Shown here piece after piece: positions 1-36,038 of a stretch of DNA of 64,000 bases. How positions within the stretch are numbered: position 1 is the first letter of the stretch; every line of letters begins with the position of its first letter. Origin of the DNA: an uncultured Methylomirabilota bacterium (GTDB lineage Bacteria > Methylomirabilota > Methylomirabilia > CAVQYV01); the NCBI GenBank assembly GCA_963718295.1, contig CAVQYV010000008.1, positions 11,442 through 75,441 of the forward strand, written 5' to 3'. A program made the position numbers and the translations under genes. The notes under the pieces are model-generated. The model was given only the letters and a program-made list of their open reading frames with translations, was not told where the DNA came from and searched no databases.

Positions 1-1353
1 CTACTCAGGGATCGGGACATCATACGGGAGCTGGACCTCACTGCGGGCCTCAAAGCCCTTTCGGTCAGGTTGACCACGGCTGATAAGAAGCGTGTAAGGG
101 TAAACGAGATATCGACGCCGAAGCCGGTGAGGGTGGTGATGGAGAAGGGGTTCAAGAAGATGAATCTCGGTGGTGCGGTTTCAGCCTCCATCCAAGAACT
201 CCCCTATCTCGGAAATCTGAAGGAACCCCTTCGGGTAGCCTTTGACGTTATCGGTCTAAAGGCTGACATGAACAGGAGTAAGGTTACGATCGACAAAGGA
301 GAGTTCCGATTCCTCGAAAGGAGCGTGATTTCATGGCACGGCTCGATGGAAAAGACCGACGCCGGGGCCATAGCGGATGTTACCGTAGGTCCCATATCCG
401 TCGACCTGGACGAGGTGTACCGGACGGCAAAGCCTTTTCTCCCTGAAGACGTCGGTCTCAATCTCCAGGGCCTGTCCCGGTCCCATGCGCTCACCATTGG
501 GACAATCAAGCTTTCCGGCCCTGTCCCCAAGGGTCCTTTAACGATCGCCCTCGACGATCTCACCTTGCGTGTCCCGATGGTGAACCTGAAACAGAAAGAG
601 ATGTCGGTCTCTTCCAGGGAATCTTCCCTTTCAGCAAAAGACCTGAGGGTGGTCCTGAAGGATCTCTTCCCGTCTCAGGCGACTGGTGCCATGACTCTCC
701 ATATCGATGACCTCCGGGTCGGGGGACCGAAGGGAGTCCCCTATCTCGGAAATCTGAAGGAACCCCTTCGGGTAGCCTTTGACGTTTCCGGAGGTGGGGA
801 CATGCTGAAGACATTCACCATCACACAGTCGTTGCGGGTGTCTCCACTCAACCTAAAACAGGAGGCCCGCGTCTCGGTCTCGGGGCTCGACAAACTCATG
901 AGCAAGGGCCAAAACCGGCCTTTGGCGGAGCTTCTCGAATTTATGGGTGGGAAGGCCAAATTCTCACTCGACATAGACAACACGGATGTTTCGTTCGTAG
1001 CAAAGGACGCCGCTGTGGCGGGGAAGATCGCAATCGGTGCGGATATTGACCTCCTTCCCCGTCGTGAGATCGGTCTGAGAGGGTGGATGCAGGCTCCGGG
1101 TTTGGATCTGACGTACGGGAAAATTGTGGACATAAAGAATCTCAAAAGCAGCCTCGCCGTGGCAAAACGGTATCGCCTCTCCATAAAGGAGGAGGGAGGC
1201 CCCACCGGTCCTCCTTCGGCCTTACCTTTCCGTCCAGGTGCTCAAGCCATCGGCGGAGGCGCCGCGCCGGACCGGAACCGAAGGCCCGGTGGTGGACAGG
1301 CTCATGAGCGATATCAGGGCGAAGGGAGGAGACCGAAGGACGTTCTCCGCTGA
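1..1353 (+). CDS. large envelope protein, 5' end outside window; possibly YdbH/AsmA-like (first reading-frame segment)
   Basis: Frame 1 is open from base 1, with no stop before the ORF-track start at 70. No catalytic motif recognised. The assignment rests on synteny with the DUF1318/YdbL-like gene at 2048. The last ~50 codons (GGPTGPPSALPFRPGAQAIGGGAAPDRNRRPGGG...) look out of frame. Confidence 0.35.
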   Translation, partial: LLRDRDIIRELDLTAGLKALSVRLTTADKKRVRVNEISTPKPVRVVMEKGFKKMNLGGAVSASIQELPYLGNLKEPLRVAFDVIGLKADMNRSKVTIDKGEFRFLERSVISWHGSMEKTDAGAIADVTVGPISVDLDEVYRTAKPFLPEDVGLNLQGLSRSHALTIGTIKLSGPVPKGPLTIALDDLTLRVPMVNLKQKEMSVSSRESSLSAKDLRVVLKDLFPSQATGAMTLHIDDLRVGGPKGVPYLGNLKEPLRVAFDVSGGGDMLKTFTITQSLRVSPLNLKQEARVSVSGLDKLMSKGQNRPLAELLEFMGGKAKFSLDIDNTDVSFVAKDAAVAGKIAIGADIDLLPRREIGLRGWMQAPGLDLTYGKIVDIKNLKSSLAVAKRYRLSIKEEGGPTGPPSALPFRPGAQAIGGGAAPDRNRRPGGGQAHERYQGEGRRPKDVLR

Positions 1354-2032
1354 ATCCGTCCACATCGGTCTAAAGCCCCTTCCGATAGACATCACACACA
1401 CGGCCCTCGATTTCAGCCTCGAAGAGGGTCTTCCTTCGGTCGATTTTTTCCAGACCGACATTATGGGGGGTACGGTGCGGGGCTCCCTTTCGATCAAGCG
1501 AAGGAATGGCGTCTTCTTTGCCGATTTGAGATCCGCCTTCTCAGGGCTCAATGCACAGCGCTTGATCCCGGGGCCGCCGAGTGATATACGGAACGAAGAG
1601 GCCGAGGTGAGCGGTATGCTTTGGGTCGGGTTGCCCCTTTCGACATCCATAGACCGTCTCTTGCAGGACATGGAGTTCGAACTGGAGATCACCCGTATCG
1701 GTACGCGCGCACTGGAGAGGATGCTCTACGCCCTCGATCCTTATGAAAACAACGAGTCGATCGTCCGGCAGAGGAAGGTTCTCAGGATGGGCTCGGTCAG
1801 ATGGGTACGGGCGGGCCTGAAGGACGGCATGCTCTCCACCTCAGGACAAGTGGAGGTGAAAGGTGTGAAGTTGGATCTTCCCAGGCTTGAGCGGCTTAAT
1901 GTGGGGAGCCTGCCCGGCCTCGGCGGGTTCGAAGAGCGGCTCGCAGTCATCGGACCGGCCATCAAGATGCTCAACATCCTCTCCGCCAATACGATCGTGA
2001 TTGAAAAGGACGGAAAGATAAAACTGCTGTAA
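1238..2032 (+). CDS. second reading-frame segment of the same YdbH/AsmA-like gene (C-terminal part)
   Basis: Frame 2 is open from 1187 and overlaps the previous ORF by more than 100 nt. The sequence is protein-like (DRLMSDIRAKGG...LEEGLPSVDFFQTDIMGGTVRGSLSIKRRNG...). It ends 15 nt before the lipoprotein gene. Confidence 0.4.
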   Translation: MLKPSAEAPRRTGTEGPVVDRLMSDIRAKGGDRRTFSAESVHIGLKPLPIDITHTALDFSLEEGLPSVDFFQTDIMGGTVRGSLSIKRRNGVFFADLRSAFSGLNAQRLIPGPPSDIRNEEAEVSGMLWVGLPLSTSIDRLLQDMEFELEITRIGTRALERMLYALDPYENNESIVRQRKVLRMGSVRWVRAGLKDGMLSTSGQVEVKGVKLDLPRLERLNVGSLPGLGGFEERLAVIGPAIKMLNILSANTIVIEKDGKIKLL

Positions 2033-2047
2033 CGGAGACGAAGGCCT

Positions 2048-2635
2048 ATGAAGAACGCTTTGTTGTTGCTCATGGTAGCTGCCCTCTGTGCTGGCTGCAC
2101 GCTCGCGCGGGTGAAAGTCGATGTGGTGAGCGAGCGGACCTCCCTTGAAAACCAGGTGCTCGGCACTTACAACGCCCTCGATCGAGAAATGCTTCTTGTG
2201 GCCTCCGTTCGCGGTGTCGATACCGAAGGACACGTTCAAACCCCGCCCAGACAGAGTCGGGAACAGCAAGATGTCCTTCTGGCGATGCAGGTCTTGTCCT
2301 TTCATGAGGACGACCTCCAGGCCTTCAAGCAGCTCGGTTGGGTGGGCGAGAATAAAGAAGGGCTTCTCACCGTCTTTCCCATGACGAAAGAAAAGGTGCC
2401 CCAGGAATTGAAGGAATTCGCCGAACGCTATAAGGAGGAAGAGTTCGGATCGGTTGTCGGAAAGATCAACTCGGCCAGGGAGGTCGTGATGCAGAGGGTG
2501 ATCGCGCTAAACGAGAACTTCACAGAGGCCGACCTCCCGGCGGTCCGCGGCGTCTTTGCAAAGCTTAACGCCGAAAACGCCAGGTCAGGGGAGAAATACC
2601 AGGCCGAAGACGGAACATGGAAGGTTAAGCCCTGA
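2048..2635 (+). CDS. lipoprotein with C-terminal DUF1318/YdbL-like domain
   Basis: Lipobox LLLMVAALCAGC. The C-terminal half aligns by eye with E. coli YdbL (GWVGENKEGLL vs GRVGETFYGYL; SGEKYQAEDGTWKVK vs PGEYVQGINGKWVRK). The stop overlaps the next start (TGATG). Confidence 0.7.
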   Translation: MKNALLLLMVAALCAGCTLARVKVDVVSERTSLENQVLGTYNALDREMLLVASVRGVDTEGHVQTPPRQSREQQDVLLAMQVLSFHEDDLQAFKQLGWVGENKEGLLTVFPMTKEKVPQELKEFAERYKEEEFGSVVGKINSAREVVMQRVIALNENFTEADLPAVRGVFAKLNAENARSGEKYQAEDGTWKVKP

Positions 2636-3597
2636 TGGGCCACGAAAAAAGAATTCCATTTTTCATTGCATTGTTTCTCGTCTTCGCTCTTGATTCCCCG
2701 GTCTCTGCAAAAAAGGAAGGCCCCCTCCCCTTGCCCGTCAATAGCCCCATACAGGTCACCGCCGAAGCAGACTCCATTCTCTATGCCGATGTGTCGCGGG
2801 ACGGGAAGAAACTCATCTATACGACCGGGAGGGTTGAATTCACCGATCTCTATCTGCGCTCCGCCGACCCTTCGGTCGTGATCCTCCCAGTGCGACTCAC
2901 CGCCGACCCCGCCTCCGAGTCCGCACCCGCGTGCTCCCGAGATGGAAACCTCATTGCCTTTGTGGGCTCCGATTACGACGCGAAGGGAGACATTTACCTC
3001 GTGGATCTCAGCACAAAAGAGAAGGCGCCGAAGAGGCTTACTGGAAGGGAGACGGAAGATGGCGCCCCGGCTTTCTCGCCTGACGGAAAGAGGATCTATT
3101 TTCACCAATCGAGGCCTGGCGAGGAGGGAAGAAGGATGGTCGTCCTCGATCTCTCCTCAACTGACAAGGCACCGGAGGTCATCGACACCCGTGGGGACGC
3201 ATCGTTTCCAGCGGTCTCTCCAGACGGGACCAAGATCGCATTCGTCTCCCACAGAAGCGATCCCAACGGCGACATCTTTTATCTCGACACAAAAGGCGGC
3301 AAGGTCGTCCAACTCACCAAAGCAGCTGAGATCGACCTCCATCCCGCCTGGGCTCCAGACGGCAGGTACGTCTATTTCACCAGGTTCGGCCTCGATACCG
3401 ACCGCGACGGAAAGATCGCACCCAAGGATAACGCCTCCATCTTCCGCGTCGCGGTTGACGAGGACAATCCTACTGCCTATCCCGTGACCTCCGCTGCCTA
3501 TTCCTGCTTTCAGCCGAAGGTCGCGGCAGGTCGGCTCTTCTTTCTCATCCACCAGGGGAGGCGTCAGCAACCTCTGGTCCCTGCCTGCCGAAGGTGA
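2635..3597 (+). CDS. signal peptide + TolB-like PD40 beta-propeller (N-terminal segment of the giant TPR-CHAT protein)
   Basis: Signal peptide MGHEKRIPFFIALFLVFALDSPVSA. Repeated PD40-type blades (SRDGKKLIY, SRDGNLIAF, SPDGKRIYF, SPDGTKIAF, APDGRYVYF). The ORF tail after ...GRLFF looks out of frame. Confidence 0.8.
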   Translation: MGHEKRIPFFIALFLVFALDSPVSAKKEGPLPLPVNSPIQVTAEADSILYADVSRDGKKLIYTTGRVEFTDLYLRSADPSVVILPVRLTADPASESAPACSRDGNLIAFVGSDYDAKGDIYLVDLSTKEKAPKRLTGRETEDGAPAFSPDGKRIYFHQSRPGEEGRRMVVLDLSSTDKAPEVIDTRGDASFPAVSPDGTKIAFVSHRSDPNGDIFYLDTKGGKVVQLTKAAEIDLHPAWAPDGRYVYFTRFGLDTDRDGKIAPKDNASIFRVAVDEDNPTAYPVTSAAYSCFQPKVAAGRLFFLIHQGRRQQPLVPACRR

Positions 3598-3628
3598 GAT
3601 CCCGACCCGCCTAAGCGCGGCCGAACAG

Positions 3629-6600
3629 TTGGAGCTGGCGGATGGGATCGCAAACAAGGTGCCGCCCGATCCCTATCTCTGCCTTCTCGCCTACTACCGC
3701 GTCCTGGAAGCCTTCTCTTCGGAAGAACCCTTTGCCGGGAGGGCCGCTTATGAAACGGGAAGGCTCTATGTAAAGGTCGACATGCCAGAAGCAGCGGAGG
3801 CCGCTTTCAGGGTGTCGAGTACGGCCCACGGCCGGACGCTTCCGGAGGCCGCCCTCTCGGAAATTGAAACGGTTGTGATCGAGGCGAAGGGGAGATACGC
3901 TTCCGCTGAGACCTCCGCTCTGAAAGAGGAAGCCCTGAACAAGGGACTCACCGCCATCGATGGGATCGCTTCGCGACACCAGGGACTGCCGAAGGTCCAG
4001 GCACGGGCTGGCGTCGAGAAGGCGAAGCTTCTCCTGGTATTGAGCCAGAATCCTCCGTCGATTTTGAAGGCGATAGGATTCCTCGACCGAGTCATCGCCG
4101 AGTACAAGAACGAGAGGATCGAAGCGGCTGAAGCGCTGGTCCTCCGGGCCGACGCTTACGGCCAAGTGGGAATATCCGAACAGGTCTATCCCGAATACAT
4201 CAAGGTGATCGACGACTATCCCGATATCGAGGAATGGGCAGACAGGGCCGTCGAACGCATTCTCGAAAAGATCCTGAAGGAATCCAAAAAGGGCAGGCTG
4301 GAGTACCAGGCCGAGGTCCTCCGGGGGATTGCCGAGAAGAACCGTTCCTCCCATCCGAGACTTGCCATGGGCGCGCTCAACCGGGTGGGAGATCTCTTCT
4401 ACCGGGGGGACGAGTGGGAGGGGGCCAAGGCAGCATACCGGCAGGTGCTGGTTCAGTACCCGGTGGAGACAACCCAGACGGCTGCTGCAAGGCTCGCGCT
4501 GGCCGAGATCCTCTATAGGCAAGAGCGCTTCCGCGAGGCGATCGACCTCTATGAAAGGGAGCTTGCTCTGCGGTCCTACCAGGATCCTATTTACCTCCTC
4601 GCACGGGCCGGCTACATCCGAAAGTCCGTCGACTCAGGGGAGTTCCTCTATCGCATCGGAGAGGTGGCTTCGGCACGGAAGATCTTCAAGGAGCTGATCG
4701 ATTACGATGGGTCAATCATCGAGGCCCACCGGGGCTATATCAAGTGCGCGGCAGCGCAGAAAGAGGTCCTCCCTCTCCTCGCGTCGTACAGAGACCGGCT
4801 AAAGCAGAGGCCCGACGATCCCGTGGCCAATTACACCCTGGGCCTTGGCCTCACCTATCTTGAAGACAGGTCCTCGCTCGTGGAGGCGAAGCCCCTCATC
4901 CTCAAGGCGATCAGCATCTACGGACAGTCCGAATTTTTCCACCAGACCCTCGGTTACATTTTTGAGGTTCTGGAAACGGTTTATGGAGAAATGGGGAACC
5001 TTGAGTACGCGATCGAATCCTACCAGAAGGCCTTTTTCCTGAATGACCCGAGGAATAACCCAACGAATCACGCCAATCTGCTCCTCAATCTCGGGAACGT
5101 TTATCATCTTCTCGGACAGCACCAAAGAGCCTACCAGTTCTACCGGAGGCGTTTGGAGTCCCCTATTCCCTTCGACAATGAGGAGACGGAGATCCTCTTT
5201 TACCGCCGTTTCGGTGCGTCGGCATTTCAGGTTCGGAAACCGGCCGAGACGATCGAGGCTTACAAAAAAGCGCTCTCCCTCATGGAGAACCGCGTGAGGC
5301 CGAAACAGGCCTCGGATGCCTTTGACAGGATCTCAAAATACATCAAGGACAACTTCCTCATGCCGGCATCGAAGGTTGAAGCGCTGAAGAAAAAGGCCGA
5401 TGAAGTCGGTGAAAGACAGGCATCCATAAACCGTAGGCTCTTCAAACTAAGCCAGGCCGATCTGGCGTCGATCCGCGATCCCGGCTGGGAAGAATACCGG
5501 AGGGGCATGGAAGCGCTTCTCGCAGAGGAAAAGGCCCTCTTCCCCGCCATCACGTCCCTGGGCGAGGCGACGGCTATGCAGGCACCTGAGAGGGAGAAGG
5601 CAGTGCAGGATCTTAACTTCATGGCCCTGAAGGTATCGGACGCCTTGCGTTCTCCGGTCCGGTTCGCCGAACTTCAGGCTGAGATGTTCGACCGCCTCGG
5701 TCTCGCCTATCAGGAGGCGGGTGAATGGAAAAACGCGATAGAGACGTTCGAGAAGGTCTACGGCCTCAATCAGGCACTCGGACTCACCGTTAACCTGGCG
5801 AGGAACAGACGCTCGGCTGCATACAATCGCTACCTGCTTGCGGGGCAGCTCTCGGGAGACGAGCGTGTCGCTCAGCTCAGGAAGGCCTCCGAGGAATTCC
5901 AGGAGGCGCTCTCCCTCGTCCAAAAATATGGCGTGGTGAAGAAAGGAGAGGAGAGGGATAAGGCCCTGATCAGCGTTGCCCTCCAGGTCTCACTCGACAC
6001 GGCCGCCGCCACAGAGGCTGCCTATGGCTTTTCCAAGGAGCAGGAGGAGCGGCTGGCCGAAGCCTTCATCACGCGCATCCTGACCGAACTGGGCGAGCTG
6101 GACCCCGCTCTGGAGATGACCCAAAAACAGCTCGGACGCTATCCGCCGGACAAAAGCATCGCCGAAAGAGATGTCTACGGAGTATCGCTCCTCTACCACA
6201 GGGCGGGCCATCTCTTCGCTGCCGAGGAAAGACCGGCCGATGCCTTTGACGCCTTCGGCCGCTCAGCTGAACTTGCCCATCGGATGGGAAATCCCGTGAA
6301 CGCCGCAATCAACACGATGAATATGGCCCATGTCCTCGCTGCCATGCCCGAAGCCGATCCTGTCTTTGACACATTACGGCAGCGCCTTTACCAAGCGGAT
6401 GAAAAGACCACTGGTCTCGTTTCCGGCGATAAAGCAATCGAGGGCTTGGCCATCCTCCCATATTACCATAACATCATGGGAGTCTACCTCATCGCCCTAG
6501 CCCCGGCTGCTGGAAAGGCCGACGTCGTATCGGCATCGACGCGAATGGACGCACTCCGGCGTGCCCTAGCCCATTTCGATAGAGGGCTCCGCTTCTTTAA

Positions 6601-9600
6601 GGAGACGGGCTATGACAGAAAAATGCTCTCCCTTGAGGCCGCACTCCACCTGAACACGGCCGCCGCCGCGTCCATGATGGGCGATGCCACAGGCGCGGCC
6701 ACATGTTTCGAAAAGGCGCTGAAGGTCGCAATGGATGCGTTCCTTCCCGAGATCGAATGGAGGGCATTGAGCGGCCTCGGCCGGACCAAAGAGGCGCTCC
6801 ATACGCTTTCGGCCATGACGCTCATTCGCGCCGGGGCAGGGCCGGAGGAGATCCTCCCGGCCTTTTCAGGACTCGTTCAGGCGAAGATAGAGAATGGGAA
6901 GACCGAAGAAGCCTTCAACCTTGCGGAGCGTCTTTCCGAGCTTGACAGGGTGCAAAGGCTTGCGTCTTTCGTGATCGGAGAGATCCCGGAAAGGGAGAGG
7001 ACGCTTTATCGCGAAAGCTATCAAAGGGTCATTCGCATACAACAACTGAAGAAAGATATGGCTTCCGCAAAAGGTGAGGAAAGGGAGTATGTGAAACGCC
7101 GATTGGACCAGGAGACCGATCTTCTGTCGGAAAAATTGGGGAAGCAACGCGAGCGCATTCAGTATCTCAATGAGTTGGTGAAGGACCCGGGGTTTCAGGA
7201 TGAAGTGATGATCTTGATCGCGCTCGCGATGCGAGCCGAGGAGGTAGCCGACGCCGCGGTTGCGACCGATGACGAGGAACGAAAAAAGGTCCTCAGTCGC
7301 GAGCACGCAGACCTGAGTGATCAATACGGAAAGACCCTGAGCCGAATTCTGTCGAGAGGCGAGGAGGAAGACGCCCCCAACATGGCTCCTCTCTTCGGAC
7401 CGAAACCGGTCGAGGCCATCGATGTCATGGAAACCCTTTCGGAGGACGAAACCCTCTTCAGGCCTTTCAGGATGAGGGGCGATCCATCGGGATTCCTCGT
7501 CTTCAGGGTCACGAAGGAAGACCTGGAGGTTAAAAAAGTGTCTTCACTGGATCAGATCAGACTCCCCGAAAAAGGGAAAGCCACGATCGCCTATGAAGAT
7601 AGGACGGCACTTCCCGGTGGACTCAAGCCATCGGCCTGCGCCTTGAGCGCGACGCATCTCATCAGGTCAACCCAAAACAGAAAACCGTTCAAGAGAACGC
7701 TCCTCGCCGTATCCTATGAAGGTTCGATCCCACCCTCCTATGCCGTGAAGACCCTTCCATCTTCTGCCGTCGAAAAAGATATCCCCGACGCGATGACGGG
7801 ATCCCATCTCCTCCTTTTCGGCGGTTCCATCGCCCCTGCCCAGACCGTTCCGACGCGAGCAGCCGAGGTGCCCACTCGTTTCATCGGAATGGGATTTGAC
7901 CGAGGCAGAAGACTCAGCCTACGCATGCTCGCAGCTGGGCTCCGCGATGTCTCCCTTGCGCTTCTGCCCGGGCTCCACCGTGAGGGCGTCTACGCGGCTG
8001 GGCATCTCTTTTCGATCTTCGGCTGTCCTACGATGATCCTTCCAGAGCGGACCGGAAAGGACTCCAATTTCATCGGAAAATTTATGGAGGCCTACGAGAC
8101 CCAGGCGGCGGATGAGGCGCTAAAGAGCGCCCTTTCGCATACGACGGACTCATGGATGTTGCTTGGCTACCGGGGCATGGGTCCGGCCGAGGCGCGCAGG
8201 TTTGCCGAAGGGAATTTCGTGAAATACGTGAAAAAGGGACAGGTGGCCTTTGCGGCGAACGAGCCGGCCCGTGCCCTTTCGTACTTTGAGAACGCATTGG
8301 CCGTCGCGAAAGAGACCGATTCCCTCAAGACCCACCTCCCCAACCTCTATCGCTTAAGCCGTGAGTGTGCTTATAGGGCAGGTGACATGAGAAAGGCCGC
8401 TGAATATGCCTCGGCCCTTGTGGACTTGATCCAAAAGAAGGAACCCGATTCGAAGGACCATGCCGAGGCCCTGCTGAACTATGGCTTGGTGCTGTCGCGT
8501 CTCGAGCAATACGGGGTGGCGGCACCGCCTCTCGAGAAGTCTCTGGAGATCATGGCCAACCTCGAACTGGAGAGCGAACAGGTGAGCGCCCTCGCGAGTA
8601 CGGGCCTCGTATTCGAGAATGCCACCGAGTACGACCGGGCCCTCGTCCATTTCAGGTCAGCCCTCGATCTCAGCCTGAAGCTCGACAAGAGAGAGCTGAC
8701 CGCGCGTCAACACATGAATATCGGCCGCCTTTACGACCTCCGATTGAGCCGATACGCGGTGGCGAGGCAACACTACGAAAAGGCCCTCGGCCTCTACCTC
8801 GACCTGCGGGATGCGGCGGCCGCCGCACAGGCTCATCTCGACATAGGCCGCTGTTGCCGTCTGATGGGGAACTTCCCTGACGCCGAACTCCATTACCGTG
8901 AGGCGCTGAAGCTCGCCGGGGCGGCTTCGTCTGGGGACAGGCTGCGGGCGAAGATTGTCATCGAACAGGCCAACAACGCCTGGTTCCAGGCGCGATACCA
9001 GGAGGCCTTCGACCTACGGCAGGATGTCTACCAGGCGGCCGTGAAGGGCCAATGGCCCCTCGAGCAGGTGATCTCCCTGAACACATCTGGACTGATCTGG
9101 TGGACCCTGAACGAGAACGAACGCGCCTTGCGGGAGCTGAGGGAGGCCCTTTCCCTTGCGGGAAAGCTTGAGGTTCGGAGCGATGAGATTGCGACAACGC
9201 TCAATAACATCGGCGTCGTTTACCGGGAGATGGGGCGGTACGATGAGGCGCTAAAGACCTTCGACGAAGCCCTTGCGATAGACAAAAAACTGAAGTCCCG
9301 CTGGGCCATCGCTTACGACCTGCGCAATACGGCCCTGACCTATCTCCGGATGACACGTCCCGATCAGGCCTTACCGCTCCTGGAGGAAGCGGCGGCGGAG
9401 TCGCACGACATCGGTGACCGTGTCAACGAGGCCAAGTCTCTCCTGGGCCTCGGTGAGGCCCACTCCTTGGCGGGCAATGTTCCGAAGGCAAGGGAGGCCT
9501 TCGAGAGGGCACTGACCCTCTCCCACTCTATGGCGATACGCGAGACCGAGTGGCGGGCGCTCTACGGGCTCGGCAGACTTGCGCTTCGGGAAGACAAGAA

Positions 9601-11053
9601 GAAAGAGGCGAAGGAATGGCTCTTTAGATCGATCGACGTGATCGAGGGGATGCGAGCCGATATCAAGATCGAACAGCTCAAGGACGGCTTCATCACGAAC
9701 AAGGTCGATGTCTACGAAACACTCGTCACGCTACAGTCAGACCTGGGCGAGACCGAAGCCGCCTTCGAAACCGCGGAGCGCTCCCGCGCCAGGAACTTCA
9801 TTGATCTCCTCGGCAACCAGAGGCTGAGCCTGCAGAACGCTGTCGACCAGGAGCTTTACGAACGCCAGCTCAGAATGAGGGCGCGGATCGTGGAATATGA
9901 AGCCCTCGTGGCCCAGGCGGAGGATAAAAAGACGGCGGAGGTATACAGGACGTCTCTTGCACGGCTCAACGACGAACTGCGTGATCTCATGCTTGAAATA
10001 CAGACGAAGAACCCCCAGCTCGCGAGTATCGTCTCCGTCGACCCCCTCAAGACGGACGAGGTGCAGAAGCTCCTTGAGCCGGGAGTTGTCCTGTTGGCTT
10101 ATTATATCGTTCCTGATCAGGTACTCTGCTGGGTGGTGAAGAGAGAGGGGGTGAAGCTCTTCAGGACCCCTTTGAACCGGTCGGCCCTCGGGGAGTCGAT
10201 CCTGGCATTTCGCCAGACGATCCAGAACCTCGAACCGATCGAAAAGCTTTCAAAGGAACTCTTCAGTAAACTGATGTCGGCCGTCGTACCTGAGGTCGAA
10301 GGTGCGAAATACCTCGGAATCGTGCCCCACAGCTTTCTCCATTACCTTTCCTTCGCAACCCTTTACGACGGTGCCCAGTATGCAGCCGACCGCTTTCCGC
10401 TCTTCTATCTCCCAAGTGCGAGCGTGCTCAAGTATACGCTGAGCAGGAGGACGGACAGTAAAAACCCCCAGGTCCTTGCCATCGGAAATCCCAACCTCAA
10501 CGACCCGGCCCTGAACCTCCCCTTTGCCGAGCAGGAGGTCGAGACGATCCAGTGGAATTTTGACAAGGTCACCCTTTTGACAAAAGAGAGGGCCACCGAG
10601 AGCTGGGTCCAGGGGAACATAGGGAAATTCGGAATCATCCACATCGCATCCCATGGCACATTCGATCCGATCAACCCGCTCTTCTCGGCGATCAAGCTCG
10701 TCAAGGACGAGAAGGCCGACGGCAACATGGAGGCGGCCGAGGTTTTCGGTCTTGGGATCAATGCCGATCTAGTGCTCCTGAGCGCCTGCCAGACTGGCCT
10801 AGGTCGAATCACCCAAGGAGACGACGTGATCGGCCTGAACCGGGCCTTCTTCTATGCGGGCACGCATTCAATCATTTCGAGCCTCTGGCGCGTGAGTGAC
10901 ATCTCGACCGGGGTGCTGGTGAAACAGTTCTACCGTCTTTACAGCTCTTACAACAAGGCCGAGAGTCTCCGAAGGGCCATGCTGCATGTTAAGAACCGTT
11001 ATCCCCATCCCGGCTACTGGGGCGCCTTCATTCTCTCGGGCGATTATTACTAA
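3629..11053 (+). CDS. giant TPR-repeat protein with C-terminal CHAT (caspase-like) protease domain
   Basis: 2,474-aa ORF with many TPR-like repeats (e.g. LNNIGVVYREMGRYDEALKTFDEALAI). C-terminal CHAT motifs are IHIASHG (His codon 10652-10654) and LLSACQTG (Cys codon 10787-10789). The frame is open upstream to 3488 and encodes SSTRGGVSNLWSLP, which continues the propeller ORF. Confidence 0.9.
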   Translation: MELADGIANKVPPDPYLCLLAYYRVLEAFSSEEPFAGRAAYETGRLYVKVDMPEAAEAAFRVSSTAHGRTLPEAALSEIETVVIEAKGRYASAETSALKEEALNKGLTAIDGIASRHQGLPKVQARAGVEKAKLLLVLSQNPPSILKAIGFLDRVIAEYKNERIEAAEALVLRADAYGQVGISEQVYPEYIKVIDDYPDIEEWADRAVERILEKILKESKKGRLEYQAEVLRGIAEKNRSSHPRLAMGALNRVGDLFYRGDEWEGAKAAYRQVLVQYPVETTQTAAARLALAEILYRQERFREAIDLYERELALRSYQDPIYLLARAGYIRKSVDSGEFLYRIGEVASARKIFKELIDYDGSIIEAHRGYIKCAAAQKEVLPLLASYRDRLKQRPDDPVANYTLGLGLTYLEDRSSLVEAKPLILKAISIYGQSEFFHQTLGYIFEVLETVYGEMGNLEYAIESYQKAFFLNDPRNNPTNHANLLLNLGNVYHLLGQHQRAYQFYRRRLESPIPFDNEETEILFYRRFGASAFQVRKPAETIEAYKKALSLMENRVRPKQASDAFDRISKYIKDNFLMPASKVEALKKKADEVGERQASINRRLFKLSQADLASIRDPGWEEYRRGMEALLAEEKALFPAITSLGEATAMQAPEREKAVQDLNFMALKVSDALRSPVRFAELQAEMFDRLGLAYQEAGEWKNAIETFEKVYGLNQALGLTVNLARNRRSAAYNRYLLAGQLSGDERVAQLRKASEEFQEALSLVQKYGVVKKGEERDKALISVALQVSLDTAAATEAAYGFSKEQEERLAEAFITRILTELGELDPALEMTQKQLGRYPPDKSIAERDVYGVSLLYHRAGHLFAAEERPADAFDAFGRSAELAHRMGNPVNAAINTMNMAHVLAAMPEADPVFDTLRQRLYQADEKTTGLVSGDKAIEGLAILPYYHNIMGVYLIALAPAAGKADVVSASTRMDALRRALAHFDRGLRFFKETGYDRKMLSLEAALHLNTAAAASMMGDATGAATCFEKALKVAMDAFLPEIEWRALSGLGRTKEALHTLSAMTLIRAGAGPEEILPAFSGLVQAKIENGKTEEAFNLAERLSELDRVQRLASFVIGEIPERERTLYRESYQRVIRIQQLKKDMASAKGEEREYVKRRLDQETDLLSEKLGKQRERIQYLNELVKDPGFQDEVMILIALAMRAEEVADAAVATDDEERKKVLSREHADLSDQYGKTLSRILSRGEEEDAPNMAPLFGPKPVEAIDVMETLSEDETLFRPFRMRGDPSGFLVFRVTKEDLEVKKVSSLDQIRLPEKGKATIAYEDRTALPGGLKPSACALSATHLIRSTQNRKPFKRTLLAVSYEGSIPPSYAVKTLPSSAVEKDIPDAMTGSHLLLFGGSIAPAQTVPTRAAEVPTRFIGMGFDRGRRLSLRMLAAGLRDVSLALLPGLHREGVYAAGHLFSIFGCPTMILPERTGKDSNFIGKFMEAYETQAADEALKSALSHTTDSWMLLGYRGMGPAEARRFAEGNFVKYVKKGQVAFAANEPARALSYFENALAVAKETDSLKTHLPNLYRLSRECAYRAGDMRKAAEYASALVDLIQKKEPDSKDHAEALLNYGLVLSRLEQYGVAAPPLEKSLEIMANLELESEQVSALASTGLVFENATEYDRALVHFRSALDLSLKLDKRELTARQHMNIGRLYDLRLSRYAVARQHYEKALGLYLDLRDAAAAAQAHLDIGRCCRLMGNFPDAELHYREALKLAGAASSGDRLRAKIVIEQANNAWFQARYQEAFDLRQDVYQAAVKGQWPLEQVISLNTSGLIWWTLNENERALRELREALSLAGKLEVRSDEIATTLNNIGVVYREMGRYDEALKTFDEALAIDKKLKSRWAIAYDLRNTALTYLRMTRPDQALPLLEEAAAESHDIGDRVNEAKSLLGLGEAHSLAGNVPKAREAFERALTLSHSMAIRETEWRALYGLGRLALREDKKKEAKEWLFRSIDVIEGMRADIKIEQLKDGFITNKVDVYETLVTLQSDLGETEAAFETAERSRARNFIDLLGNQRLSLQNAVDQELYERQLRMRARIVEYEALVAQAEDKKTAEVYRTSLARLNDELRDLMLEIQTKNPQLASIVSVDPLKTDEVQKLLEPGVVLLAYYIVPDQVLCWVVKREGVKLFRTPLNRSALGESILAFRQTIQNLEPIEKLSKELFSKLMSAVVPEVEGAKYLGIVPHSFLHYLSFATLYDGAQYAADRFPLFYLPSASVLKYTLSRRTDSKNPQVLAIGNPNLNDPALNLPFAEQEVETIQWNFDKVTLLTKERATESWVQGNIGKFGIIHIASHGTFDPINPLFSAIKLVKDEKADGNMEAAEVFGLGINADLVLLSACQTGLGRITQGDDVIGLNRAFFYAGTHSIISSLWRVSDISTGVLVKQFYRLYSSYNKAESLRRAMLHVKNRYPHPGYWGAFILSGDYY

Positions 11054-11114
11054 GTTTTCCGAAACAGGTTAGAATAATGAGGCGAAAATGGATTCTATTT
11101 TCATGGAGGATACG

Positions 11115-11631
11115 ATGATGCGTCGAAAGAAATTTTTTGTCCCGATCGTTGCTCTTGCCCTCATGATGACCGGCGCGGTCATGGCCGCGGAGATGTTATG
11201 GGTTGATCTCCGAGGGGGCCAAGCTCAAGATGGAACCGAGCGCTTCTTCCGAGACCATCGAGGGACTGCCGGTGGGGTCGGAGCTGATGGTGGATTCCTC
11301 AGAGGGAAGCTGGTACAAAGTCACGACGAAGTCGAATAAGACGGGATGGATATACCGTGGCAAGGTATCCTCCACGCAGCCTGAGGGAAAGGAGGACAAG
11401 GGCGGAGGCGGTCTCTTCGGGGCATTGCCCGGAAGCAGCATCCAGGTGAGCGCTGCTGACACGTCGAGGAGCATAAGGGGGCTCTCGCCTGCGGCAAAGG
11501 AATATGCTGCAAGTGCAAATACGCCCGAGGCATATCAAAAGGCCCTCGACAGGGTCCTGGCCCTGAGGGTTACCGATAAGGAAATCGAGGATTTCCTTAT
11601 AGAGGGAAAGATAGGGGAATACAGCAGATAA
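11115..11631 (+). CDS. secreted SH3b-domain protein (frame break at a G5 run)
   Basis: GGAGGA lies 5-8 nt upstream. The signal peptide MMRRKKFFVPIVALALMMTGAVMA is in one frame. The SH3b core (GSWYKVTTKSNKTGWIYRGKV) is in the next. The frames join cleanly if the G5 run 11214-11218 were G4. Confidence 0.65.
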
Positions 11632-11657
11632 GACTCCCATGATGGAGGAGAGGAATC

Positions 11658-12639
11658 ATGAAATCACTTCGCTTGTTGGCTCTGATGATCATCTGTTTTC
11701 TTACGACAGGCTTTCAGCTGGGTGACTTTCTCGGCGATACGCTGACGGGTCAGGAAGAACAGGAAAAAAAGGAGACCTATCAGAAAGAATACAAAAAGGC
11801 GCGTGAGAGGGGCATGAGCGAAACGGAGGCCGATCGTCACGCCCGGGAGGCTGCTGAGAAAAAGGCCGGAAAGCGCAAATCATTGATTGAAGGCGTTGGT
11901 GCAATTTTGAGCAGCACCGGAGAGATCGACTACGAATCGGAGATGGCCATCGGCGAGAGCCTTGCCCTCGAGGGATTCAAGCGGTACGGCGTTCCAGTGA
12001 ACGACGAGGGTTTCCAAAGGTACGTTAATCTCCTTGGCAACGCCGTAGCGCGAAACTCGATCAGGCCTGAGATTCTTTACCGATTTGTTGTCATCGAAAG
12101 CCCGCTTTATAACGCCTTCGCCTGTCCTGGCGGCATCATCTTCATCTCCTCCACCCTCGTCAAATCCATGGCGAACGAGTCCCAACTTGCAGGAGTCCTT
12201 GCCCACGAGGTTTCCCACGTGGGTCATAAGCACGCACTCAAGTCGATCAGGCGCGCCAAGTTTTTCGAAGGTGTCGGCAAGATCACGGCAGGCCAGCATG
12301 AAGGGCGATAAGGGCAAGGAGTTCCAGGGAATGATCGGTGACCTGCAGGGTGTTCTTTTTGACAAGGGCCTCGATAAAGAGATGGAGTTTGAGGCCGACC
12401 TCTCGGGCATGGAGGCTGCCTACAGGACGGGCTACGACCCGTCGGCAATGATCGAGGTCCTGTACACGCTCCGGGAGAAGGAGAGCGGGGCGACCAAGGA
12501 AGGATCTTGGTTCTCGACCCACCCACCCCTCGAAAATAGAATCGAAAAATGCCAGTCAGCGATGGGAAAATATCCCGACGCTAAGAGCCTGGCCAAGGAA
12601 GAGAAGCGCTTCGCGTCCTACAGGACGAAATTGCCATAA
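11658..12639 (+). CDS. M48-family zinc metallopeptidase (frame break near 12290)
   Basis: N-terminal anchor MKSLRLLALMIICFLTTG and HExxH (HEVSHVGHKH). After ~12290, in another frame, come the EFEAD third-ligand region and STHPPLENR. Confidence 0.75.
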
Positions 12640-12702: not shown

Positions 12703-12742
12703 CAAAAAAATGGCCTCTTTGGAATTGCGAGGCAAAGAGGCC
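12703..12742 (-). terminator. rho-independent terminator downstream of selC
   Basis: On the minus strand: GGCCTCTTTG, an 11-nt loop, CAAAGAGGCC, then ATTTTTTTGCC. Confidence 0.6.
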
Positions 12743-12765
12743 AGGTTTGTAAGTGATTGAATTTA

Positions 12766-12786
12766 TTGGCGGAGGCGCGTGGGAGT
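12766..12786. repeat. 21-nt duplicate of the selC 3' end
   Basis: TTGGCGGAGGCGCGTGGGAGT is identical to 12864-12884 (3' half of the T-arm, acceptor 3' strand and CCA). The similarity ends abruptly after it. Confidence 0.9.
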
Positions 12787-12864
12787 TCCTTCGTTTCGCT
12801 CAGGACAGGCTCACCCGCACCTCACGCACTCCCCATCTTCCCGGAGCAAAACAGCCAGCTATGT

Positions 12865-12962
12865 TGGCGGAGGCGCGTGGGAGTCGAACCCACCCAAGGC
12901 ACCGCGAAGGGCCTCGCACTGGATTTGAAGTCCAGGAGCAGCACCGGCCACAACCCGCCTCC
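12865..12962 (-). tRNA. selC: tRNA-Sec (anticodon UCA)
   Basis: 98 nt. The anticodon arm CTGGACTTCAAATCCAG is identical to E. coli selC as I recall it. Extended acceptor stem GGAGGCGG/GCGCCTCC, long variable arm, T-arm GTGGGTTCGACTCCCAC, encoded CCA. Confidence 0.93.
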
Positions 12963-13162: not shown

Positions 13163-14584
13163 TTATTCCGGCTGGAATCTCTCGATCTGAAGCTCACCCA
13201 GGCCCAGATCCTGAAGTTGCCCCTGGATCTTTTCCCCATCTCCCAACACCGCAATGAGCAGGCTGTCATAGGGAAAGAGATCGCGGGCAGCGGAGTTGGC
13301 TTCCTCCAGGGTCACCGCTTCAATCCTCTTCTGATAAGTGTCGATATAATCGAGCGGCAATCCGTAGAATGCGACGTCTGCCAACTGGGCCACCAAGGCC
13401 CCGGCTCTTTCCAGGGCGATATAGTAGATTCCCTTCTTATAGGTCTTGACCTTTGCCAGCTCTTCGGGGCTAAGGCCTCCCTCACGGAAGATTCGTACTT
13501 GCTCCAGGATGGCGGATATGGCCTTTCCCACATTCCCGTTCTGCGTCGAGGTCTCGATCACGAAAGAGCCCCCGGCCTTTCCCATGGAGAAATGGCTATC
13601 AATACTATAAGTGAGTCCCAGGTTCGCCCGGATTTGATCCATCAGACGCGAGCTGAACCCCATGCGACCCAAGATGCCATTGGCCAAAGAGAGAGGGAAG
13701 TACCGAGGGGTATCGCGGGGTACCCCGATATTTCCCATGAAGATCTGGGCCTGGGTCACATCGGGCTTATCGATCAGGATCACCCTTCGGCCTCGGAGGG
13801 AGGCGGGTGGAGGCACGGAGGCCATCTTAAGCTCCCCCTGAGCCCAGGGGGAAAACAGGGCCCTTAACTTCTCTGCCATACCGGCGGCATCGAAGTCGCC
13901 CACTACCACCAGGATGGCTTGATTGGGCAAGAAGAAGCGGCGATAGAAGGCCTCCACATCCTCCCGCTGAATGGAGGCCAATGACTGGCGGGTCCCGTTC
14001 AGGGGATGGCCATAGGGGTGATCCCGATAGAGGAGGGAGCGAAACTTCCTCTCAATAATGGTCCCTGGGTCCTCGTTGGCCTGCGAAAGAGCGGCCAGGG
14101 CCTGCGCGCGCTGGCGGTCCAACTCCTCCTGGGGGAAGGTGGGATGCAGCAGGCAATCGAGCAAAAGATCTAAGCCCCGGTCGATATCCTTGGAGAGCAC
14201 CTCCAGGGAGATGGAGCAATAGTCATAATTGGCACCAGCGGAGAGGCTTCCACCCAAAAAGTCAATCTCCTCCGAGATCTGACTGGCATTTCGCTCGGTG
14301 GTGCCCTTGAGCAGAAGGTCCGCAGCAAGGGATGCCAGGCCCGCCTTGTTCGTCGCTTCCTGGGAGGCTCCACCCGGCAGGATGAGAAGGAAATTCGCAA
14401 TGGGGATCTTACGGTATTCCTTCAACACTAGGGTAAGGCCATTAGGGAGTTGGGTGCGGGATACTTCCCCCAGCATGGCCCAGGCCGATGGGGCAAAGGA
14501 AAGGAAAGTGGCGAGTATGCAAAAGGCGCAGGTCCAGATCCAGGTAATGGCTCTTCTTCTCTTCAGACCGCTTCTCGTCCCCAT
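13163..14584 (-). CDS. M16 (pitrilysin/insulinase) family peptidase-like protein, non-catalytic type
   Basis: M16-like sequence without HxxEH. Signal peptide present. Start chosen at MGTRSG (14584), 4 nt after the upstream stop. Confidence 0.8.
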   Translation of the reverse strand: MGTRSGLKRRRAITWIWTCAFCILATFLSFAPSAWAMLGEVSRTQLPNGLTLVLKEYRKIPIANFLLILPGGASQEATNKAGLASLAADLLLKGTTERNASQISEEIDFLGGSLSAGANYDYCSISLEVLSKDIDRGLDLLLDCLLHPTFPQEELDRQRAQALAALSQANEDPGTIIERKFRSLLYRDHPYGHPLNGTRQSLASIQREDVEAFYRRFFLPNQAILVVVGDFDAAGMAEKLRALFSPWAQGELKMASVPPPASLRGRRVILIDKPDVTQAQIFMGNIGVPRDTPRYFPLSLANGILGRMGFSSRLMDQIRANLGLTYSIDSHFSMGKAGGSFVIETSTQNGNVGKAISAILEQVRIFREGGLSPEELAKVKTYKKGIYYIALERAGALVAQLADVAFYGLPLDYIDTYQKRIEAVTLEEANSAARDLFPYDSLLIAVLGDGEKIQGQLQDLGLGELQIERFQPE

Positions 14585-14588
14585 GACC

Positions 14589-15971
14589 TCACCTCCCCTC
14601 CCGAATCGGAACCAGGACCAGCGTGGTACGGCGATCCGGATCAAAGTACTTTTTTGCCACCCGCTGGATATCCTCCAGCCGCACTCGATTCAACTTGTCC
14701 AGGATCTGGAAGAGCTGCTGGTAGTCTCCGAAGACCACCTGGTGATAGCCCAGCATCCGGGCGCGGGAGGCGTTGCCCTCCATGCCCCGAATGACTTGAG
14801 CCTGGGCGATATTTTTGGCCTTCTGCAGATCCTCCTCCCGGACTCCCTTTCCTTGGATTTCCTGCAGGATCTGGTTCAGGGAATCCTCCGCCTCCTTCAA
14901 CTCGTGATCGGGTTTCATCTGGGCATAGAAAAGGAAAAGGCCCGGATCGATGGCGTCGTGAAGGCCAGCCCAGGCAGAGGTTGCGATCTGTTGCTCATAA
15001 ATGAGACGCCGATAGATCAGGGAACTTTCTCCTGAGGAGAGGATGCCCTCCAGCAGCGAGAGGGGATAGGTATCCTCCGACTGCACGGAAGGACCTTGAT
15101 AGGCAATCATCAGGGCAGGGAGCTCTGCCTCCTTCTTGATCGAAACGCGCCGCTCCCCGCGCTGCGGGGGCTCCGCATTGACCACCGAAGGCGGAGCAGG
15201 CTGGGCGGGAATTCCAGAAAAATATCTCTCCATCAGGGCCAGGGCAGGGGCCTCCTCCACATCCCCCACCAGGATGGCTACTGCGTTGCTGGGCGAATAA
15301 TAGCTTGCCAGATAGGCCTTCACCTGCTCCAGGGTAATGGCATCCAGATCCCCCATCCAACCGATGACCGGCCAGCGGTAAGGATGGGCCAGGTAAGAAT
15401 TGGCGTAGAGCTGCTCATACATCGTGCCGAAGACATCATTCTCGGTCCGCATCAGCCGTTCCTCTTTGACCACCCGCCGTTCCCGGGCGAAATTGGCTGC
15501 CTCGATCTTCAGATGCTCCATCCGGTCGGCCTCCAACTCCAGGACCTTTTCCAAGGCCGAGCTGGCAAACTCCTCCCAGTAGAAGGTATAGTCTTTGGTG
15601 GTGGCCCCATTGGTGTACCCGCCGGCTGCCTCGATGATGCGGTCGAATTCCTTGGGAGGAAACTTGTCGGTGCCGCTGGAAAATCGGAGATGCTCTAACA
15701 GATGGGAAATCCCAGTGGCCCCCGGCATCTCATTGCGAGATCCAACCTTGAAAAAGACGCAGAAGCAGGCAATGGGCAGGGAGTGATCCTCCGAGATCAG
15801 CACGGTCATGCCATTCTTCAAGGTGTGCTGGGAGACCGGGAATTGCTGGGCCTCTGCTGGTGCCCAGGGACTGCTCACAAGGAACAGGAGGAGCCCCAGG
15901 ATCGGCAACAGGAGGAGCAAGATTTTCAGCGAAGGAAACGAATTCCGGAAAGACCTCATGCGCATCCACAT
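14589..15971 (-). CDS. M16 family zinc peptidase, catalytic type
   Basis: HxxEH motif in GISHLLEHLRF. N-terminal signal peptide. Adjacent to the inactive M16 partner. Confidence 0.85.
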   Translation of the reverse strand: MWMRMRSFRNSFPSLKILLLLLPILGLLLFLVSSPWAPAEAQQFPVSQHTLKNGMTVLISEDHSLPIACFCVFFKVGSRNEMPGATGISHLLEHLRFSSGTDKFPPKEFDRIIEAAGGYTNGATTKDYTFYWEEFASSALEKVLELEADRMEHLKIEAANFARERRVVKEERLMRTENDVFGTMYEQLYANSYLAHPYRWPVIGWMGDLDAITLEQVKAYLASYYSPSNAVAILVGDVEEAPALALMERYFSGIPAQPAPPSVVNAEPPQRGERRVSIKKEAELPALMIAYQGPSVQSEDTYPLSLLEGILSSGESSLIYRRLIYEQQIATSAWAGLHDAIDPGLFLFYAQMKPDHELKEAEDSLNQILQEIQGKGVREEDLQKAKNIAQAQVIRGMEGNASRARMLGYHQVVFGDYQQLFQILDKLNRVRLEDIQRVAKKYFDPDRRTTLVLVPIREGR

Positions 15972-19130: not shown

Positions 19131-19180
19131 AAGGCACCGGAAAGATCTCTGGTCAGAAAGCCCCGGTGCCTTCCTATTTG
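19131..19180 (+). terminator. possible rho-independent terminator after the aminotransferase gene
   Basis: AAGGCACCGG (19131-19140) pairs with CCGGTGCCTT (19163-19172), followed by CCTATTTG. The loop is long (22 nt). Confidence 0.45.
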
Positions 19181-19204
19181 CGGGAAAGGGGATGCCTGGA
19201 CGGA

Positions 19205-20008
19205 ATGGATGAGATTAGTACAAGGAGGGCAAGCGTGATTGACCATGAGGGGCGCAGCAGGGAGTTTGAGCGCCAGATCATCCAACTCCTCGAGGCCTCC
19301 GGATTTCAGGTCCAAACCAATGTGACTGTGGGCGGGGTCCAGCCAGATATCGTAGTGGCCGTTCCCGACGGCAGGATCTACGTGGTAGAGGTCAAAGCCT
19401 GGGAAAAGAGGCCAGGGTTTACGGTGCGTGCCGCCCGCCAAGTCCAACTCTTCCAGCAGGAGATCGGTGTGGACGGGGCCTATGTAGTCGTCAAGGATCT
19501 GGAACGGAGCCGCCCGCAGACTGGCGTTGTCATGGCGAAAGACCTCGTCAGCGCCCTACGCAAGGATGTAAGCGAGGCCAAGGGCGAGGCGAGGAGGCAG
19601 CCACCCTCCCTGAAATCTCCCGGAAAGATCGTCTTTGCCGCCATGCCCTTCTCAGGGGACTACGAGGATGTTTTCTTCGTGGCCATGGCGCCGGCTGCCG
19701 AGGCGGTGGGCGCCGTATGCAAGCGGGTGGATCGTGAGGAATACGCGGGGAATGTCGTGGAAAAGGTCAGGTACATGATCCGGGAGTCCATCGCCGTAAT
19801 CGCCGATCTCTCGGAATCGCGGCCTAATGTATTGTATGAGGCAGGCTTCGCTCACGCCCTCGACAGGCCGACTGTCCATATCTGCTCCACGCCCCTGAAG
19901 GACCTCCCCTTCGATATGGCCCAATGGAGCACCATCGAATACCAGAAAGGGCAGACCCACAAGCTGCGATCCATCCTCACCAACCGCCTCCGCACCATAC
20001 TGGCCTGA
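19205..20008 (+). CDS. fusion protein: N-terminal PD-(D/E)xK (Mrr/restriction-endonuclease-like) domain + C-terminal nucleoside 2-deoxyribosyltransferase-like/TIR-like domain
   Basis: Asp at 19346-19348 (QPDIVVAV) and E-x-K at 19388-19396 (VVEVK). The C-terminal ~130 aa reads KIVFAAMPFSGDYEDVF...IADLSESRPNVLYEAGFAHALDRPTVHI. Start set at ATG 19205, because the ORF-track TTG 19166 lies inside the terminator hairpin. Confidence 0.55.
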   Translation: MDEISTRRASVIDHEGRSREFERQIIQLLEASGFQVQTNVTVGGVQPDIVVAVPDGRIYVVEVKAWEKRPGFTVRAARQVQLFQQEIGVDGAYVVVKDLERSRPQTGVVMAKDLVSALRKDVSEAKGEARRQPPSLKSPGKIVFAAMPFSGDYEDVFFVAMAPAAEAVGAVCKRVDREEYAGNVVEKVRYMIRESIAVIADLSESRPNVLYEAGFAHALDRPTVHICSTPLKDLPFDMAQWSTIEYQKGQTHKLRSILTNRLRTILA

Positions 20009-35926: not shown

Positions 35927-36038
35927 CTTCCTTTGATCCTCCTTCCGGATTCTGATTGATCCAGGGGATGTCTTCGAATGAAGGTCCCAATGCAAAATTC
36001 CTACCAAAGCTACTCAAAAGGAGCGGAGAAATCGGATC

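Follow-up and report, generated by a model that had tools for sequence, protein, structure and literature searches.

The first 12.6 kb of a 64,000-nucleotide stretch of contig CAVQYV010000008.1 from an uncultured Methylomirabilota bacterium (the whole stretch is referred to here as the window) carry a cluster of envelope protein genes. These encode an AsmA-like protein, a DUF1318 lipoprotein, a giant exported protein built of a propeller, tetratricopeptide repeats (TPR) and CHAT domains, an exported SH3b protein and an exported M48 zinc metalloprotease (Table 1). Coding is on the plus strand throughout positions 1-12639 and the junctions are tight: the stop of the AsmA-like gene at 2032 is followed by a start at 2048, the DUF1318 stop and the start of the giant gene overlap in a TGATG at 2633-2637, and the stops at 11053 and 11631 are followed by starts at 11115 and 11658. 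Pfam recognizes among the window products DUF1318 (PF07027, 40.4 bits against a cutoff of 27), PD40, many TPR families, CHAT (190 bits, with TPR repeats preceding the domain), SH3_3 (35.9 bits against a cutoff of 27) and Peptidase_M48 (67.6 and 43.7 bits on two frame pieces). An earlier note on this DNA had described five plus-strand genes with minimal spacing and exported products. The coding, the junctions and the export hold, the latter because the four N-terminal signal or lipobox sequences quoted in that note are present in the window products and signal peptides or lipoboxes recur in the orthologues; the count of five genes does not, as four of them are split by +1 insertions.

Table 1. 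Features of the envelope gene cluster in window coordinates, with the loci of other genomes in which the SH3b and M48 genes are fused
Feature	Position	Strand	Remarks
AsmA-like gene, 3' part	1..2032	+	cut by the left edge of the window; rearranged; extra base at ~1218
DUF1318 lipoprotein, 195 aa	2048..2635	+	YdbL fold; lipobox Cys17 codon 2096-2098
Giant exported protein, 2805 aa with the extra base at ~3547 removed	2635..11053	+	propeller to ~3597
Middle pseudo-CHAT domain of the giant protein	7436..8339	+	aligned to the C-terminal CHAT with hhalign; lacks the catalytic His and Cys
C-terminal active-type CHAT domain of the giant protein	10076..11050	+	His codon 10652-10654; Cys codon 10787-10789
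Exported SH3b protein, ~171 aa, conserved C-terminal region	11115..11631	+	extra base at ~11203
Exported M48 zinc metalloprotease, ~326 aa	11658..12639	+	HEVSH 12204-12218; extra base at ~12291
Stable hairpin, downstream end of the cluster	12711..12743		folding energy compared with shuffles
SH3b-M48 fusion loci	L016 (17472-18704), L017, L021, L058, L067, L070, L075		

The cluster is conserved across sulfate- and metal-reducing bacteria. A scan of genomes, one per species, returned 386 stretches that encode a relative of the giant protein, and the 80 loci kept span Desulfobacterales, Desulfovibrionales, Geobacterales/Desulfuromonadales, Desulfatiglandales and others, including Citrifermentans bremense, Geomonas, Geobacter sp. 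OR-1, strain NaphS2, Desulfosudis oleivorans, Desulfonema magnum, Humidesulfovibrio and Desulfobulbaceae. Among genome loci with enough flanking sequence, the DUF1318 gene lies directly upstream of the giant gene in 55 of 60 (56 if locus L041 is counted), and an AsmA-like gene lies upstream of DUF1318 in 54 of 60. In the reverse test, a metagenome scan seeded with an alignment of the DUF1318 lipoprotein, the giant gene stands next to DUF1318 in 53 of 61 loci by a strict criterion and in about 57 of 61 after the eight exceptions were read by eye, while the AsmA-like gene is found upstream in 53 of 58. The earlier note had named beforehand a lack of conservation in related genomes as the finding that would speak against its proposal; association is instead strong in both directions. 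The stop/start overlap that it saw at 2633-2637 is likewise a conserved trait, with an in-frame start codon of the giant gene overlapping the DUF1318 stop in 81 of 123 loci. All-against-all clustering of open reading frames (ORFs) in the flanks, which was swamped by shadow ORFs, yielded no further widely conserved neighbor.

The five genes do not behave as the single unit proposed in the earlier note. SH3b and M48 genes directly follow the giant gene in 47 of 66 loci, and 29% of the loci lack them; a median of 92 nt separates the giant gene from SH3b, whereas SH3b and M48 are at most 30 nt apart in 55 of 66 loci and, in some lineages, fused. More specifically, the unit splits into a core of AsmA-like protein, DUF1318 lipoprotein and giant protein and a separable SH3b-M48 accessory. 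The core extends to distant relatives. A locus at 28% identity (L086) encodes a DUF748/YhdP-type protein of 1032 aa, a DUF1318 protein of 184 aa and a giant protein without SH3b or M48, and in another (L085, 26% identity) the giant gene is preceded by genes for a DUF1318-like lipoprotein and an unknown protein of 525 aa. In Leptospira (L087, 5344-16590) AsmA-like, DUF1318-like and giant genes follow each other in the same three-gene order. The first of these scores 1514 bits with the NCBIfam LIC_11026 family, a 'hypothetical equivalog', and its N-terminus weakly resembles the AsmA family; the second (167 aa) matches the DUF1318-lipoprotein HMM at 2.6e-11, and its gene call starts past the expected lipobox position and so may be truncated; the third is a propeller-TPR lipoprotein of 2529 aa.

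Such an arrangement could also arise merely from joint expression of envelope genes, with the giant protein, the AsmA-like/DUF1318 pair and the SH3b-M48 pair independent in function. Desulfonema magnum, which retains all three core genes with the AsmA-like/DUF1318 pair and the giant gene 7 Mb apart, is consistent with this explanation, as are the dispensability of SH3b-M48 at the locus and its loose spacing from the giant gene. However, the two-way association exceeds 90%, reaches from Desulfobacterota to Leptospira and to relatives of 26-28% identity, and is accompanied by the conserved stop/start overlap; conservation of such depth is unusual for unrelated neighbors. Functional independence is thus improbable, and there is good reason to expect that the three core proteins work together.

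The DUF1318 protein, judged by its profile match and its structural model, is a member of the YdbL/DUF1318 family and fold. Its AF2 model has a pLDDT of 84.4, and the best Foldseek match of its C-terminal half is the crystal structure of E. coli YdbL (28oj; TM 0.87, rmsd 2.1 Å). A lipobox is present in 60 of 60 orthologues and is followed by an almost invariant motif, C-T-L-A-x-V-x-V-x-V-V-S-E-R-T-x-L-E-N-Q, recorded across all 60 as G-C-T-L-A-x-V-x-V-x-V-V-S-E-R-T and placed right at the lipidated Cys. Residues 19-28 are disordered in the model of the monomer, as expected of a segment that would fold only on a partner.

Because the N-terminal end of the window AsmA-like gene lies beyond the window edge, its superfamily assignment is taken from the intact orthologue in L081, a metagenome contig with 84% nucleotide identity to the window whose giant protein is also 84% identical. 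This orthologue has 1221 aa and an N-terminal transmembrane helix, and residues 8-239 match the Pfam families AsmA (35.3 bits, cutoff 29.8), DUF748 (4e-13) and YhdP (1e-8). By these matches, the AsmA-like protein of the core, at about 1000-1360 aa, is assigned to the bridge-like lipid-transfer superfamily, with a predicted anchor in the inner membrane. Membership in the YdbH family can be rejected, since neither the L081 nor the L086 orthologue matches PF11739 at E <= 1 (E. coli YdbH itself scores 969.8 bits) and BLASTP against E. coli YdbH gives E = 0.2. A counterpart of YnbE was also sought: there is no match at E <= 1 to PF13617, a profile on which E. coli YnbE scores 59.3 bits, and the 15-nt spacer between the AsmA-like and DUF1318 genes is too short for a separate YnbE gene. 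Nor could a YnbE-YdbL fusion be demonstrated, the likeness to YnbE being at the level of the lipobox only. Thus, of the 'YdbH/YdbL-type' module of the earlier note the YdbL fold stands, but in the absence of a YdbH-family match and of YnbE, and with a DUF1318 protein that is lipidated, the description should read 'AsmA-like plus YdbL-fold lipoprotein'.

The giant protein, once its two frames are merged, is matched over 99-100% of its length, at 42-84% identity, by more than 60 full-length relatives that are also about 2800 aa long, and for this reason the single polypeptide is taken from the comparison to be its ancestral form. Weaker relatives (25-40% identity) occur in Nitrospinota-like and unclassified bacteria. 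Its layout runs from a signal peptide through a PD40/TolB-like propeller, a first TPR array, a dead CHAT domain and a second TPR array to an active-type CHAT domain; a signal peptide opens nearly all of the related proteins, and a lipobox is present in several. The middle CHAT domain was recognized by hhalign, which aligns residues 1270-1570 of the TPR-CHAT ORF with the C-terminal domain (probability 98.5%, E 2.8e-15), and it has lost both catalytic residues in the window protein and in distant relatives alike. In the C-terminal domain, by contrast, the catalytic His and Cys are invariant in two alignments and the dyad is kept in 90 of 91 relatives, in line with what the earlier note had anticipated for orthologues. 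An AF2 model of the last 1185 residues (pLDDT 87.4, pTM 0.71) has human separase (4.4e-15), DdvA (1.4e-14) and Csx29 (1.8e-14) as its top PDB matches in Foldseek. The model accordingly identifies the C-terminal domain as a caspase-fold CHAT of the separase/craspase TPR-CHAT type, and the conserved dyad suggests that it is probably an active protease.

Three named identities were considered for the giant protein and none applies. The protein falls short of the TolB equivalog TIGR02800 (122 bits; cutoff 343), with PD40 repeats as the only common element, and no tol or pal genes adjoin the giant gene. Csx29 is not indicated either: the NCBIfam model NF041237 gives 39.7 bits where the cutoff is 300, and the inspected loci contain no cas genes. 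An anti-sigma factor of the DdvA type is contradicted by the N-terminus, where a signal peptide or lipobox leads directly into the propeller, and by the lack of a sigma factor gene in the loci inspected.

The presence of a CHAT domain raises the prospect of a conflict or defense system or a secreted toxin, roles taken by many CHAT proteases (Craspase, effector-associated CHAT). CHAT proteases are indeed common in defense systems and the structural likeness to Csx29 is real, but PADLOC matches a generic TPR model only, the Csx29 profile is far below its cutoff, no CRISPR, CBASS or sigma/anti-sigma genes lie nearby in the inspected loci, and the locus is stable and syntenic across orders with envelope proteins as its only partners. 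On this evidence the defense reading is rejected as highly improbable.

The main rival to a proteolytic role is a mostly structural one. In this alternative the giant protein would be a largely non-catalytic periplasmic scaffold or tether, with a propeller and TPR arrays reminiscent of TolB and CpoB, that organizes the outer-membrane end of a lipid bridge or links it to peptidoglycan, while CHAT would serve only in self-processing or sensing and could be lost. Several observations are in keeping with it: in the Leptospira core the propeller-TPR giant is retained but no CHAT domain is detectable in it, across the family one CHAT domain of the two is already dead, TolB and YbgF/CpoB-type models give weak matches, and the periplasmic TPR-CHAT of DdvA, present there in a resting state, is proposed to act by autoproteolysis (PMC11506125). 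Retention of the C-terminal His/Cys dyad in nearly all relatives over deep divergence argues, however, for selection on catalysis in most lineages, and a mainly structural giant is accordingly considered a real but minority possibility. The 'protease module' of the earlier note is therefore upheld as regards the dyad, but the term may overstate the core function: because the Leptospira giant lacks a detectable CHAT, proteolysis may not be the conserved core activity.

The accessory SH3b protein belongs to a small family; a homologue search returned 351 proteins, which among the matches listed are mostly about 165-180 aa long. Its orthologues are about 175 aa with Sec signals, and the corrected window frame is open. 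The M48 protein is a soluble metalloprotease of the periplasm; its orthologues carry Sec or Tat signals, and its HExxH motif reads HEVSH. The closest solved structures are 3c37 (5e-31) and then BepA (about 1e-17), and the NCBIfam models for BepA (90 bits against a cutoff of 570) and LoiP (43 against 365) place it as a member of the family and not as an orthologue of either. In seven Desulfovibrionales-type loci (Table 1) SH3b and M48 are fused into one exported ORF of 410-470 aa, one of which (L017) has lost HExxH. Because of this fusion, the two are regarded as a single functional unit. A second, intact M48 peptidase gene is found elsewhere in the window (36039-36887, minus strand), where it adjoins a DUF975 membrane-protein gene (35132-36007, minus strand).

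The window copy of the cluster differs from its relatives in the state of its reading frames. The DUF1318 gene is the sole intact gene of the five. The AsmA-like gene is split over two frames (1..1353 and 1238..2032), as are the giant gene (2635..3597 and 3629..11053) and the M48 gene (11658..12311 and 12085..12639, a break that splits the Pfam model at positions 87/108), while the SH3b gene has its signal peptide at 11115 in one frame and its SH3 domain at 11203..11631 in another. In L081, comparison of nucleotides and ORFs finds all five genes intact, encoding an AsmA/DUF748/YhdP-type protein of 1221 aa, a DUF1318 protein of 195 aa, a giant of 2807 aa that overlaps DUF1318 by ATGA, an SH3_3 protein of 176 aa and an M48 protein of 336 aa. 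Nucleotide alignment with this contig shows that the window coding sequence has precisely four single-base insertions, at about 1218, 3547, 11203 and 12291. The base at 3547 is missing from three contigs of 90-94% identity and that at 1218 from the one such contig that covers the site. The single-base insertions are private to the window sequence, and programmed frameshifting is rejected because close relatives lack the extra base at both sites that they cover.

The AsmA-like gene is in addition permuted relative to L081, with window positions 4-255 corresponding to 7690-7940, 265-733 to 6601-7069 and 733-2021 to 7881-9169; about 800 nt are missing, though the reading frame is still open. A perfect 50-nt direct repeat is present within it (200-249 and 737-786). 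The rearrangement could be an artefact of assembly or real length variation in a repetitive groove.

Whether the insertions are errors or lesions bears on the standing of this copy. If they are real, the module in this genome is a recently inactivated pseudo-operon. About 30 other window genes look full-length by Pfam, and the 64 kb yielded just one further frameshift, which splits a gene for a TPP-dependent enzyme at about 34280, its N and M domains lying at 33263-34300 and its C domain at 34269-34907 in another frame (both plus strand). The concentration of four of the five shifts within 12.6 kb fits real decay, as do the rearranged AsmA-like gene and the lack of the extra bases in relatives at the two covered sites. 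On the other hand, all five shifts, including that in the unrelated TPP-enzyme gene, are +1 single-base changes, a pattern that fits systematic assembly error. Moreover, removal of the four bases leaves all frames open, about 4,000 codons being free of stops, and the corrected genes are under purifying selection, with dN/dS values against L081 of 0.20 for the giant, 0.11 for DUF1318, 0.25 for SH3b and 0.13 for M48. Assembly error is thus the likelier origin of the four insertions and a pseudo-operon the less likely one, and the five window 'genes' should not be taken at face value before the assembly has been checked.

At its downstream end the cluster is followed by the hairpin listed in Table 1 (11 bp, dG -22.5 kcal/mol, z -3.6), which the earlier note had taken as the first terminator-like structure. 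The hairpin is real, but one of its flanks is A7 and its plus-strand U tail is weak, the U-run being on the minus-strand side, and it adjoins a gene for tRNA-SeC (12865-12962, minus strand); it is probably the intrinsic terminator of that gene or bidirectional. Within the cluster, 13 terminator-like sites were found against 14.6 expected in shuffles, which is no excess. The tRNA-SeC gene lies directly downstream of the cluster, and an exact 21-nt copy of its 3' end (12766-12786, matching 12864-12884 at a distance of 98 nt, with no such match in 100 shuffles) looks like the remnant of an attachment-site duplication. Beyond it, two tandem full-length genes for M16 (insulinase-type) peptidases (13163-14644 and 14589-15971, minus strand) converge on the cluster; the pair is not conserved beside the cluster in L081.

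Farther along the window, a 280-aa ORF at 19166-20008 (plus strand) weakly matches nucleases of the NERD/Hjc/Mrr type, may have a C-terminus like that of nucleoside 2-deoxyribosyltransferases, and might be a small defense-type gene. Genes for RodA (FtsW/RodA family) and a PBP2-type transpeptidase at 49994-52987 (minus strand) look like ordinary cell-elongation genes, and the ORFs onward to 55406 may include mreBCD.

Taken together, the locus is, on balance, best read as one copy of a widely conserved, uncharacterized cell-envelope module in which a giant protein docks on a lipid bridge. In E. coli, YdbH together with YnbE makes up an intermembrane phospholipid bridge, YdbL binds YnbE and modulates bridge formation, and DegP degrades free YdbL (PMC11126948, PMC13464000). 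By analogy, the AsmA-like protein and the lipoprotein would form a comparable bridge, and the giant would use its propeller and TPR surfaces to dock on this bridge or on the end that lies at the outer membrane. The giant would then be a scaffold that uses its caspase-like domain to cut itself or some component of the assembly, and so controls assembly or turnover of the bridge, while the SH3b-M48 unit would serve as an accessory quality-control protease of the BepA/LoiP kind. The control of YdbL by DegP, a periplasmic protease, offers a precedent for protease control of such a bridge. That the CHAT substrate is itself encoded within the cluster is only a tentative suggestion. A bolder version, put forward as a long shot, would make the giant a periplasmic 'separase' for intermembrane lipid bridges, which docks on the AsmA-like/lipoprotein complex and cleaves the lipoprotein or the bridge, thereby licensing or dismantling the contact site; if true, phospholipid traffic to the outer membrane would, in Desulfobacterota and their relatives, be under the control of a proteolytic switch.

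Several points weigh against the docked-giant mechanism. Conserved gene order does not prove a complex, and the frequent absence of SH3b-M48 has been noted above. With an AsmA-like protein from outside the YdbH family and no detectable YnbE-like domain, the analogy with E. coli is limited to the YdbL fold and the superfamily. A Nitrospinota-like genome has a giant gene without an adjacent DUF1318 gene. In the Leptospira giant no CHAT domain is detectable (none by HMM search, hhalign probability 5%), and on the same searches a degenerate CHAT could not be demonstrated there. Finally, with four genes frameshifted and one rearranged, the copy in the window may be inactive.

The phospholipid transport to the Gram-negative outer membrane is an open question for which AsmA-like bridges (TamB, YhdP and YdbH-YnbE-YdbL) are candidates, and it is here that the cluster may be of wider significance. 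Large groups of environmental and pathogenic diderms, among them Geobacter relatives, sulfate reducers and Leptospira, have a YdbL-fold protein with a lipid anchor, and its gene is almost always paired with those of a distinct AsmA-like protein and a giant propeller-TPR-CHAT protein. This association offers a new, genetically testable set of partners for a bridge-like transporter and hints that bridge assembly may be tied to regulated proteolysis. The suggestion of the earlier note that no system of this composition has been described agrees with the literature searched, in which no paper was found that mentions the Leptospira genes or connects CHAT to either DUF1318 or AsmA-like proteins, and none of the five cluster proteins reaches a curated NCBIfam cutoff. 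All of the parts are of known families; it is the composite of a lipidated YdbL-fold protein, a giant double-CHAT protein and an AsmA-like gene that is undescribed.

Comparison with known systems reveals both the likenesses and the distinctive features of this composite. As in the E. coli ydbH-ynbE-ydbL operon, a gene for an AsmA-like inner-membrane protein lies directly upstream of a YdbL-fold gene and a lipoprotein partner is involved. However, the AsmA-like protein of the cluster is longer than YdbH (1000-1360 aa against 879 aa) and lacks PF11739, there is no separate YnbE, and a 2800-aa protein has been added to the operon; E. coli YdbL is soluble, whereas the DUF1318 protein is lipidated, twice as long and extended by an N-terminal half with its own invariant motif. 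The M48 protein resembles BepA, LoiP and YcaL in being exported with HExxH, and BepA is its best named relative, but it has no TPR domain and is partnered or fused with an SH3b protein. In NlpI-Prc and LbcA-CtpA, a TPR adaptor presents envelope proteins to a separate periplasmic protease. The parallel with these systems is one of working principle without homology, since scaffold and protease are one polypeptide in the giant protein and the protease families are unrelated.

For the giant protein itself the closest parallels are TPR-CHAT proteins. It shares this architecture and fold with Csx29 of the type III-E CRISPR system (Craspase), a protease under allosteric regulation; Csx29, however, is cytoplasmic and bound to gRAMP/Cas7-11, and the cluster has no CRISPR genes. 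Separase, the best Foldseek match, likewise combines a helical-repeat scaffold, a pseudo-protease domain and an active-type caspase-fold His-Cys domain. It is nevertheless a eukaryotic protein of cytoplasm and nucleus without a propeller, the dead and active domains of the giant are about 600 aa of TPR apart, and the likeness, at 11-14% identity, is one of fold only. DdvA has a periplasmic TPR solenoid and a CHAT domain with a His-Cys dyad and is, according to its authors, the sole characterized anti-sigma factor with a TPR-CHAT domain (PMC11506125). It differs in crossing the membrane once, in having a zinc anti-sigma domain in the cytoplasm and in acting with an ECF sigma partner that regulates a defense island; the giant begins with a cleavable signal peptide or a lipobox, contains a propeller and a second CHAT domain, and has no sigma factor nearby. 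The giant protein may thus represent, after DdvA, a second example of a periplasmic protease of the separase type.

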